From the IMG/VR virus record IMGVR_UViG_3300044712_002679, positions 116,406-180,405 of that record: DNA of 64,000 nucleotides; one strand, 5' to 3'. The first letter of the stretch is position 1. Each line of letters starts with the position of its first letter. The DNA comes from a virus. Shown piece by piece: positions 63,320-64,000 of this stretch. The position numbers and the translations under genes are program-made. Under the pieces are notes generated by a model. That model did not search any database. It was not told the origin of the DNA and was given only the letters and a program-made list of their open reading frames with translations.

Positions 63320-64000
63320 ATGATAAGACAAGACATAAAATTTGATTTTGATGATATTTTAATTGTACCAAAAAATCAAAGTTCAATAGATACAAGAAGC
63401 ATTATTAATGTGTATGATGAAAATGAAATGCTTCCATTATTTACAGCACCAATGGATACTGTTGTTGGAAATAAAAATATGGAAATATTTAAACAAAATA
63501 AAATATATCCAATAATACCTAGAACATATAAGCTATCATTTGGACCAGGTACTAATGATTCTTGGATTGATGAATGGGTGGCATTAGGGTTAAATGATTT
63601 TGAAAAATTATTAAATATCACTAATCCATATTTTGATTTAGATCATGTTGATACCAAATATATTCTTATTGATATTGCCAATGGTAATATGAAAAAAATG
63701 CATGATTTAATTGTAAAATCAAAAAATATTTATGGTGATAAATTACAATTAATGGTTGGTAATGTCGCTAATCCTGAAACATATAAAATAGTATCAGAAT
63801 TAGGTGCTGATTATGTGCGAATTGGTGTGGGTAATGGTGGTGGGTGTTTTGTAGAAAACACAAAAGTTATAACTAAAAGAGGAATTATAAATATTCAAGA
63901 TGTCATAATTGGTGATGAAGTATTAACCCACACTGGTGAATATAAGAGAGTATATAATACAATATCATATGAAACTTTTGAAGATTTAATTCAAATTAAT
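63320..64000 (+). CDS. GMP reductase-like enzyme (IMPDH/GMPR family), interrupted by an intein; partial, runs off the window
   Basis: Hand-translated (not in track): [59 protein letters not shown] parallel E. coli GuaC (..DVLIRPKRS, ANMDTV, IDVANG, GNVVTGE, GADIVKVGIGPGSVCTTR). Confidence 0.8.
   Translation, partial: [227 protein letters not shown]
63845..64000 (+). mobile_element. Intein N-terminal part (Hint domain block A) inserted at the catalytic-Cys position
   Basis: After GVGNGGG the frame continues [36 protein letters not shown] instead of CTTR; this is a typical Cys1 + hydrophobic + T.V...G......D....GD.V intein start. Confidence 0.75.

Follow-up and report, generated by a model that had tools for sequence, protein, structure and literature searches.

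A probable fractured GMP-reductase-like gene with a split intein and a free-standing Vsr-like endonuclease in an AT-rich, huge-phage-like genome

Introduction

A survey published in 2009 described 26 'fractured gene' loci, mainly from phage, in which a conserved enzyme gene is split by an intein and a free-standing endonuclease gene, of either the GIY-YIG or a novel Vsr-like type, lies between the two halves (Dassa et al. 2009, NAR 37:2560, PMC2677866). Three of these loci (IMPDH-1, IMPDH-2 and IMPDH-3) are IMP dehydrogenase (IMPDH) genes from the Global Ocean Sampling (GOS) metagenomes, broken at one integration point. Here we analyse a GMP-reductase-like (GMPR-like) gene that is interrupted by an intein at the end of a 64,000-nt stretch of viral DNA (positions 116,406-180,405 of the IMG/VR record IMGVR_UViG_3300044712_002679; the whole stretch is referred to below as the window), and we compare its organization, its relatives and its recent history with those of the systems described so far.

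Several properties of the published loci are relevant to this comparison. The Vsr-like endonucleases carry NUMOD3 repeats 5' of the Vsr-like domain, hairpins are found at endonuclease start codons, and the endonuclease gene overlaps the segment encoding the C-terminal intein half (IntC) by 6-69 bp; the IMPDH-1 intein has an acidic N-terminal and a basic C-terminal half, and the insertion points in NrdA and NrdJ differ by one residue (PMC2677866). The IMPDH-1 split intein was subsequently characterised by Carvajal-Vallejos et al. 2012 (as cited in PMC11168065) and by Pinto et al. 2020 (PMC7090010). It is experimentally validated, splices quickly and efficiently in vivo as well as in vitro, and has become a widely used tool in protein engineering.

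Results

Organization of the locus

We interpret the locus as a three-ORF 'fractured gene' (ORF, open reading frame) that combines a split intein with a free-standing homing endonuclease in a huge, AT-rich phage genome, and we put the probability of this reading at roughly 0.88. Within the window, an ATG at 63320 opens a frame that runs without a stop for 227 codons to the window end (ORF 63320..>64000). It encodes the N-half of an enzyme of the IMPDH/GMPR fold as far as the motif GVGNGGG, which is followed directly by the start of an intein, CFVENTKV. The 52 intein residues that lie in the window give only sub-threshold matches when taken alone (Hint_2, 3.9e-5; intein_Nterm, 0.058), so an intein call made from the window by itself is plausible but unproven.

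The continuation of the gene was found on a 6.6-kb contig, L001, which we retrieved by way of the exact 91-aa protein encoded by the neighbouring ORF 63028-63303. L001 overlaps window positions 63016-64000 over 985 nt with 0 mismatches, and a window-equivalent coordinate is obtained by adding 63015 to the L001 coordinate. On this contig the frame of the N-terminal intein half (IntN) ends in a stop codon and meets two more TAA codons in the short spacer that follows; a free-standing endonuclease gene (ORF2) comes next, and a third reading frame, ORF3, begins MTNLSKYKLVEIKTKK and continues through the remainder of the IMPDH/GMPR fold (Table 1). The endonuclease gene and ORF3 overlap by 17 nt (L001 2199-2215). 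Because a TAA follows IntN, a free-standing gene intervenes and ORF3 is in another frame, the intein is split and not contiguous.

This arrangement is not peculiar to one contig. The same gene order was repeated in five further independent assemblies that were read for the identical endonuclease, and for each of the identical ORF1, endonuclease and ORF3 proteins the longest contig measures 501,337 bp. The source genome is huge-phage-like, with 25% GC. Beyond identical copies, the position of the IntN stop is kept in more than 110 homologous database clusters (N-fragments of 254-305 aa), where the stop may be TAA, TAG or TGA, and the split arrangement on separate ORFs occurs in ~16 IMG/VR loci. 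The variety of stop codons across loci, together with the frame of ORF3, rules out stop-codon recoding. A group I intron was likewise rejected: Rfam (E<=1) returned only a chance snoRNA match, and what separates the enzyme halves codes for protein and carries the motifs of an intein.

Signals for expression were less informative. A scan for sigma-70 promoters returned 29 sites against 33.5 expected, with 0 terminators, and is uninformative. All three start codons lack a Shine-Dalgarno-like purine run, and only A and T stand ahead of them (window 63290-63320, L001 1170-1190 and 2180-2199). The absence of such runs would fit the distant similarity, seen by sequence comparison, of the host gene to genes of Lak-type megaphages.

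The intein and its splice junction

When IntN and IntC are fused, they align with the IMPDH-1 split intein over the full length at 36% identity (E=9e-27), with an identical split point. For this comparison the IMPDH-1 sequence was taken from the supplement of PMC7090010, which is damaged by optical character recognition, and reconciled with the printed DNA. A profile built from the intein set also recognizes inteins of solved structure, foremost gp41-1 (4.9e-10) and further DnaX, DnaB, PI-SceI and RadA. Among 15 paired loci whose inteins are only 31-60% identical, Cys1, the TxxH of block B, the Asp of block F and the final His-Asn are all invariant, and +1 is always Cys or Ser. Cys1 of the intein is Cys176 of ORF1 (codon 63845-63847); it is invariant in 46 N-fragments and stands directly after GVGNGGG. 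Block B reads TLDH (IntN residues T57-H60, beyond the window on L001), and its T232 and H235 are invariant in alignments A1 and A4. The Pfam Intein_splicing model matches ORF3 residues 14-45 at 2.8e-5, under its gathering score, and the net charges of the two halves are -12 for IntN and +3 for IntC. Judged on these comparisons, the element is clearly an intein, with the sequence features of the class 1 HINT type and a resemblance far beyond chance. A tblastn search for other copies of the intein or the endonuclease within the window found none (all E>0.05).

The junction can be read from alleles that lack the intein. In the intein-less proteins P0030, P0096, P0110 and P0111, the end of the N-extein is joined straight to the start of the C-extein, after which the sequence continues (K/Q)NVG(V/I)GYP, and the DNA of an empty-site allele, L089, aligns across the junction and reads AATGGTGGTGGA/TGCTTGACATCAAAAAATG (here and below, a slash marks the insertion point). 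Since intein-less homologues reproduce the N-extein end and C-extein start exactly, splicing would be seamless. The junction is G-V-G-N-G-G-G/C, and the +1 residue is the Cys of GGG/CLT. This Cys has an established catalytic role in GMPR and IMPDH. On the strength of that role and of the alignment, we identify the +1 nucleophile of the C-extein as the predicted catalytic Cys of the enzyme.

The initial annotation, made from the letters of the window, had proposed that a GMPR-like gene is broken at its catalytic Cys by an intein starting with Cys1 at 63845..63847, and both the alignments and the homology to IMPDH-1 bear this out. The downstream features that it had named, blocks B (TLDH), F and G (IVHN) and the rest of the enzyme fold, are present on L001. 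It had pictured a contiguous intein with an optional internal endonuclease domain; the intein stands, and its halves lie on separate ORFs with the Vsr-like ORF2 between them. The suggestion that Cys1 takes the place of the catalytic Cys did not hold, since that role falls to the +1 residue of the C-extein.

The host enzyme

Residues 1-175 of ORF1 match the Pfam IMPDH family at E=1.5e-13, exceeding the gathering score, and their best NCBIfam models are GMP reductases. In phmmer searches against the PDB, the catalytic-loop segment aligns with GADIIKVGIGPGSVC of human GMPR2 and of IMPDHs, and these alignments to solved GMPR and IMPDH structures place Cys176 on the catalytic-Cys column. The Pfam IMPDH model matches both halves of the enzyme, resuming at profile position 180 at residue 46 of ORF3. 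Spliced in silico, the protein has 366 aa, of which residues 2-365 match the 347-position GMPR model end to end. It consists of the IMPDH/GMPR (beta/alpha)8 domain with the catalytic Cys in a G-x-G-x-G-x-x-C loop, and the CBS subdomain is absent. Against the IMPDH model TIGR01302 the spliced product scores 98.6 with a cut-off of 481.5, below equivalog level, and its catalytic loop reads CLTS, not CTTR. Because the GMP-reductase score is also far under the NCBIfam cut-off and the loop departs from CTTR, we call the host enzyme GMPR-like only, and its substrate is uncertain.

In public databases the two halves are annotated as 'hypothetical protein' or 'IMP dehydrogenase', and such halves are easily misannotated as truncated or duplicated IMPDH genes. 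A megablast search with the last 2 kb against 50,697 phage records returned no match, and with tblastn the matches were confined to remote GMPR-like genes without an intein, from Lak and other huge phages.

The free-standing endonuclease

The C-terminal ~90 residues of ORF2 match 3R3P, the catalytic domain of the homing endonuclease I-Bth0305I (phmmer E=1.3e-5; profile 3.2e-5). An AlphaFold (AF2) model of ORF2, built from 36 homologues, has a mean pLDDT (predicted local distance difference test) of 82.6, and its top Foldseek match is again 3R3P (target TM-score 0.71, probability 1.0), followed by a DUF559-like endonuclease and then TnsA. The EDxHD active-site positions of I-Bth0305I are E170, D196, N208, H213 and D222 (Taylor et al. 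2011, PMC3239194). With these align, in order, E249, D276, D288, H293 and D302 of ORF2, all five of which are invariant in the 36 homologues. The N-terminal part contains two Cys/His clusters (C12-x2-C15...H34-x4-H39 and C59-x-C61-G-C63...H81) and shows a weak likeness to Ros/MucR zinc fingers (2jsp at E=0.066 and, for the L010 homologue, ROS_MUCR at 0.0056); a Pfam scan of ORF2 gave no match to NUMOD3. The protein carries the JGI label 'very-short-patch-repair endonuclease'. By its sequence and its predicted fold, ORF2 is a putative homing endonuclease of the EDxHD/Vsr-like type, with helical DNA-binding modules besides the zinc-finger-like N-terminus and the C-terminal nuclease.

The AUG of the gene lies inside a potential hairpin with an 11-bp stem, AACATATTTAT/ATAAATATGTT. 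In L003, L005 and L006 the motif of the 5' arm, ACATATTTATAA, is kept, with ACATATTTATGA in L015, at four loci whose endonucleases are only ~50% identical. The predicted minimum-energy fold pairs the 5' arm to the start codon in L003, L006 and L015, not in L005.

Comparison with known systems

The locus has all the defining features of the fractured-gene arrangement of Dassa et al. 2009, and its similarity to IMPDH-1 extends to detail. Shared are a host of the IMPDH/GMPR fold, insertion in the catalytic loop, the three-ORF order and a Vsr-like endonuclease; the sizes of the intein fragments (103+45 aa here, 101+40 aa in IMPDH-1); GGG at positions -3 to -1; the charge polarity; the hairpin where the endonuclease gene begins; and the overlap of that gene with the IntC frame, whose 17 nt fall in the published range of 6-69 bp. 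The locus also differs from IMPDH-1. The published junction is GGG/SIC with Ser at +1; the gene described here is interrupted two residues downstream, at GGG/CLT, and its +1 residue is the catalytic Cys; this offset is real and not an alignment shift, because the loop from GAD to GVGYP comprises 18 residues in both classes and aligns ungapped. ORF2 lacks NUMOD3, and its N-terminus instead weakly resembles a Ros/MucR zinc finger. Finally, the source is a huge-phage-like genome of 25% GC, as opposed to ocean and lake GOS reads.

Two further systems offer partial parallels. ORF2 resembles I-Bth0305I in its C-terminal nuclease, by sequence and by fold, and in being a multidomain protein with an N-terminal DNA-binding region, but I-Bth0305I resides in a group I intron of phage recA and carries NUMOD and helix-turn-helix (HTH) modules (PMC3239194), whereas ORF2 is free-standing between intein halves. 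As in the NrdA and NrdJ split inteins, which lie beside the thiyl-radical Cys, insertion is in the most conserved active-site loop, a catalytic residue is or adjoins the +1 nucleophile, and related hosts have insertion points offset by one or two residues. Those inteins occupy another enzyme family, however, and here both offsets occur within one host family, with intein identity reaching 52% between the two classes (L013 and L024).

It had been suggested in the initial annotation that no intein allele was described in GMP reductase and that the insertion site might be new. For the enzyme family, the first is contradicted by the IMPDH-family fractured genes (PMC2677866). The second holds in part: the site lies two residues from the published IMPDH-1 junction and is already abundant in metagenome databases. 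A literature search on inteins in GMP reductase and on split inteins in huge phages found nothing relevant, and no paper describing this allele was found. We therefore regard the split intein at this site as a new member of the fractured-gene kind known since 2009, with modest differences in insertion point and DNA-binding module.

Table 1. Coordinates of the interrupted gene and of related loci. ORF2-type identities are to the endonuclease of the window genome.
Feature	Sequence	Coordinates	Strand	Remarks
N-extein, first 175 codons of GMP-reductase-like enzyme	Window	63320..63844	+	Translation, Pfam, NCBIfam, PDB alignments
IntN, first 52 of 103 codons, from Cys1	Window	63845..64000	+	Rest on L001, to 1138
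ORF1 (N-extein + IntN)	L001	305-1141		TAA stop at L001 1139-1141
Spacer, 48 nt	L001	Between IntN stop and endonuclease gene		Predicted hairpin over endonuclease start codon
ORF2, free-standing EDxHD/Vsr-like putative homing endonuclease gene, 341 aa	L001	1190-2215
ORF3, IntC (45 aa, ends IVHN) + C-extein (191 aa)	L001	2199-2909		Frame differs from ORF1
Tract of 1,956 nt, 100% identical to L084-L088	L001	506-2461 (window-equivalent 63521-65476; in window 63521..64000)	+
ORF2-type endonuclease	L003, L005, L006, L007, L015			48-50% identity
ORF2-type endonuclease	L010, L024			30-34% identity
ORF2-type endonuclease broken into fragments	L013
NUMOD3 + Vsr-like endonucleases	L004, L012, L017, L022			Site-a loci
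70-aa remnant of endonuclease nuclease domain	L008	L008:5001-6664
Split intein, no endonuclease gene	L009	L009:5001-6563		~90-nt gap between halves
Contiguous 374-aa LAGLIDADG-type intein at site a	L071	L071:5001-7133		One 710-aa ORF
Contiguous 374-aa LAGLIDADG-type intein at site a	L077			One 710-aa ORF
Split intein at third site, GA/SDYVMIGS	L019	L019:5001-7700		382-aa DUF7487 (restriction-endonuclease-fold) gene between halves

Diversity of related loci

We examined the 80 best IMG/VR loci encoding the enzyme, of which ~20 are interrupted. A search for related loci with a single protein gave no match; a query made from an alignment found them. Two neighbouring insertion points recur: site a, after residue 5 of the motif G-x-G-x-G-S-x-C (GGG/SIC, Ser+1), and site b, after loop residue 7 (Cys+1), the site occupied in the window. 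Insertions at site a have a Ser or Cys without catalytic role as their +1 residue, and those at site b have the catalytic Cys. The 120 best hits comprise 95 site-b N-fragments, 21 site-a N-fragments and 4 intein-less sequences. Given this abundance in metagenome databases, the site-b insertion is new only narrowly.

The contents of the interrupted loci differ widely (Table 1), ranging from complete endonuclease genes of two kinds to broken genes, a remnant, a split intein with no endonuclease gene and contiguous inteins, and the related loci look like every stage of a homing cycle. In the locus with the third insertion site, L019, the catalytic loop is intact (GTGAGCTTAAN), and the related intein lies further downstream, ending IVHN/SDYVMIGS.

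Site-a and site-b inteins are mutually ~50% identical. For the L013 intein, which occupies site b, the best match is the site-a intein of L024 (52% identity), and its identity to other site-b inteins is 31-38%; on this pattern the intein would have slid or been re-targeted repeatedly between the sites. These sequence relationships suggest that the intein may have switched sites within lineages.

Evidence for a possible recent homing event

Contigs L084-L088, from other samples, encode an endonuclease identical to that of L001, but its surroundings differ: they lack the 91-aa ORF, and their upstream flank is only 81% identical. Within this diverged context lies a tract with 0 differences from L001. 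It starts 324 nt before the end of the N-extein, takes in IntN, the spacer, the endonuclease gene and IntC, and stops 128 nt into the C-extein. Immediately outside it, the N-extein (L001 312-505) shows 16 differences and the C-extein (2462-2909) shows 59.

The intein-less allele L089 allows the history of this tract to be read, since it shares with L085 an identical product of the upstream 122-aa gene. When the three sequences are aligned, L085 agrees with L089 at 174/174 informative sites upstream of L001 506 and with L001 at 70/70 informative sites across L001 511-2429, and downstream of the tract most sites are once more those of L089. The left crossover falls between L001 505 and 511, where only 6 nt separate the informative sites; over that distance no switch can arise in a k=31 assembly graph, so the left switch was not made by assembly. 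An assembly-graph chimera as the source of the L085 mosaic is ruled out at the left junction only, the right junction being less secure.

The simplest reading of these alignments is that an empty-site genome recently acquired the IntN-endonuclease-IntC unit, together with co-converted flanks, from a donor identical to the window genome. It looks as though flanking extein was carried along, 324 nt on one side and ~100-128 nt on the other. If true, this would be evidence, at the level of populations, for the homing of a split intein and its free-standing endonuclease as a single composite. Joint homing was proposed by Dassa et al. (PMC2677866), who inferred it only from gene arrangement. Taking the recombinant and the diversity of the loci together, we lean slightly towards the view that the element is a currently active mobile unit and that its intein lineage moves between neighbouring insertion points.

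A proposed mechanism

ORF1 and ORF3 would be translated separately, and the acidic N-intein and basic C-intein would then associate into a HINT fold and splice in trans. The reaction would open with an N-S acyl shift at Cys1; attack by the C-extein's +1 Cys, equivalent to the catalytic Cys, would follow, and the terminal Asn of IVHN would cyclise, the product being a seamless 366-aa GMP-reductase-like enzyme. Because the catalytic Cys is the +1 nucleophile and the catalytic loop is broken, the enzyme would have no active site until splicing had taken place. The endonuclease gene is located at the canonical endonuclease-insertion point of inteins. Its product would cut intein-less alleles of co-infecting relatives, and repair would copy the IntN-endonuclease-IntC unit, with some flanking extein, into the empty site.

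Alternative explanations

Several points weigh against the reading of the locus as a fractured gene with a mobile split intein. The parts that define the split lie outside the window, and we place them there by way of a 100%-identical overlapping contig and identical proteins. A few residues of the IMPDH-1 query may be wrong, although the conclusion drawn from it is unaffected. The best GMP-reductase score, 122.6 bits to NF003470, compares with an equivalog cut-off of 397. By itself, the hairpin at the endonuclease start is not significant (z = -1.47). The right crossover of the recombinant (L001 2429/2462) falls inside a 32-nt stretch common to all strains, and that junction could be an assembly-graph switch. 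Lastly, trans-splicing, cleavage by the endonuclease and its target, and GMP-reductase activity are properties of this element that we infer; what the sequences show is the anatomy, the homology to a validated split intein, the conservation of all splicing and nuclease residues, the seamless junction and a natural recombinant whose tract resembles one of co-conversion.

The alternative that survives best is that splicing has been lost, the intein halves now holding the enzyme fragments together non-covalently, as in Aeh1 NrdA/mobE, or the gene being a dead one disrupted by the endonuclease. There is precedent for a fragmented phage enzyme assembled through interaction domains derived from a mobile element (PMC3045599), and for this particular element splicing is a prediction. 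However, all the splicing residues are retained and remain invariant across loci whose inteins are 31-60% identical, the catalytic loop would be physically interrupted if the fragments were not ligated, and the closest characterised relative, IMPDH-1, splices fast and efficiently. The exteins, moreover, are strongly conserved, the C-extein being 76-92% identical to close homologues. We consider this explanation improbable.

A contiguous, cis-splicing intein read in frame, with or without an internal endonuclease domain, has far less in its favour. Seen from the window it would be natural, as no stop interrupts the first 52 codons of the intein, and contiguous alleles do occur in this gene family (L071 and L077). 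The identical continuation, however, has a TAA after IntN residue 103, two further in-frame TAA codons and ORF3 in another frame, and the stop position is kept in more than 110 N-fragments with TAA, TAG and TGA all represented, which makes a contiguous intein at this locus very unlikely. Equally remote is an assembly artefact, whether a chimeric contig or a frameshift error that produced false stops: all the sequences are metagenome assemblies and the right L085-type junction does lie in a 32-nt shared stretch, but identical three-ORF proteins were assembled independently in at least 7 samples (JGI, Logan), diverged three-ORF versions are found in ~20 IMG/VR loci, and the sites at the left junction are 6 nt apart, beyond the reach of a k=31 graph.

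Other features of the window

Immediately upstream of the GMPR-like gene, the window contains a 54-nt tandem duplication (62939-63046; two copies, one mismatch), in which ORF 62632-62970 stops and the 91-aa ORF 63028-63303 begins. Its first copy creates a mini-ORF, MKTVKTYIQVISKK, closed by a stop codon, and the end of contig L001 falls inside the repeat. In L085 and L089 the homologue of ORF 62632-62970 stands directly 5' of the GMPR-like gene, and the 91-aa ORF is absent. Given its absence from these related strains, the 91-aa gene has the look of an insertion specific to this strain, with the 54-nt repeat as its boundary.

Elsewhere in the window, the 456-aa ORF 33352-34722 (-) matches only the C-terminal two-thirds of Pfam DNA_pol_B (positions 136-453, E=1.9e-15), and no polymerase or exonuclease match was found by Pfam in the neighbouring ORFs that were scanned; this family-B polymerase, too, may be encoded in pieces, or else its N-terminal portion may have diverged strongly. 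At 40489-44823 (+), three ORFs in a row, 434-567 aa long, match Pfam INT_rpt (integrase repeat unit) at up to 1e-23, the first of them also matching DUF723 and a treble-clef zinc finger. Their appearance is that of a tandem family of proteins that bind DNA or are associated with nucleases, and they may represent additional selfish elements. At 47458-50097 (+), an 879-aa protein fuses a ResIII/DEAD/Helicase_C helicase to a C-terminal Methyltransf_8 domain (2.9e-28). At ~40 kb, GC and AT skew change sign, from negative before to positive after, which coincides with a switch from minus- to plus-strand genes, a point of divergent transcription that is possibly also related to replication.

Discussion

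The 'fractured gene' design that was recognized in ocean metagenomes in 2009 is, on the evidence assembled here, widespread in huge phages. In the GMPR-like gene the catalytic Cys would double as the splicing nucleophile, which would make enzyme activity strictly conditional on trans-splicing. The copy, which seems to have moved very recently, provides a natural system for the joint spread of a split intein and a free-standing endonuclease, and for the carriage of flanking sequence that accompanies it. IMPDH-1 is among the fastest split inteins in protein engineering, and the more than 100 natural relatives found here, with Cys or Ser at +1 and mutual identities of 31-80%, form a pool of candidate orthogonal split inteins.

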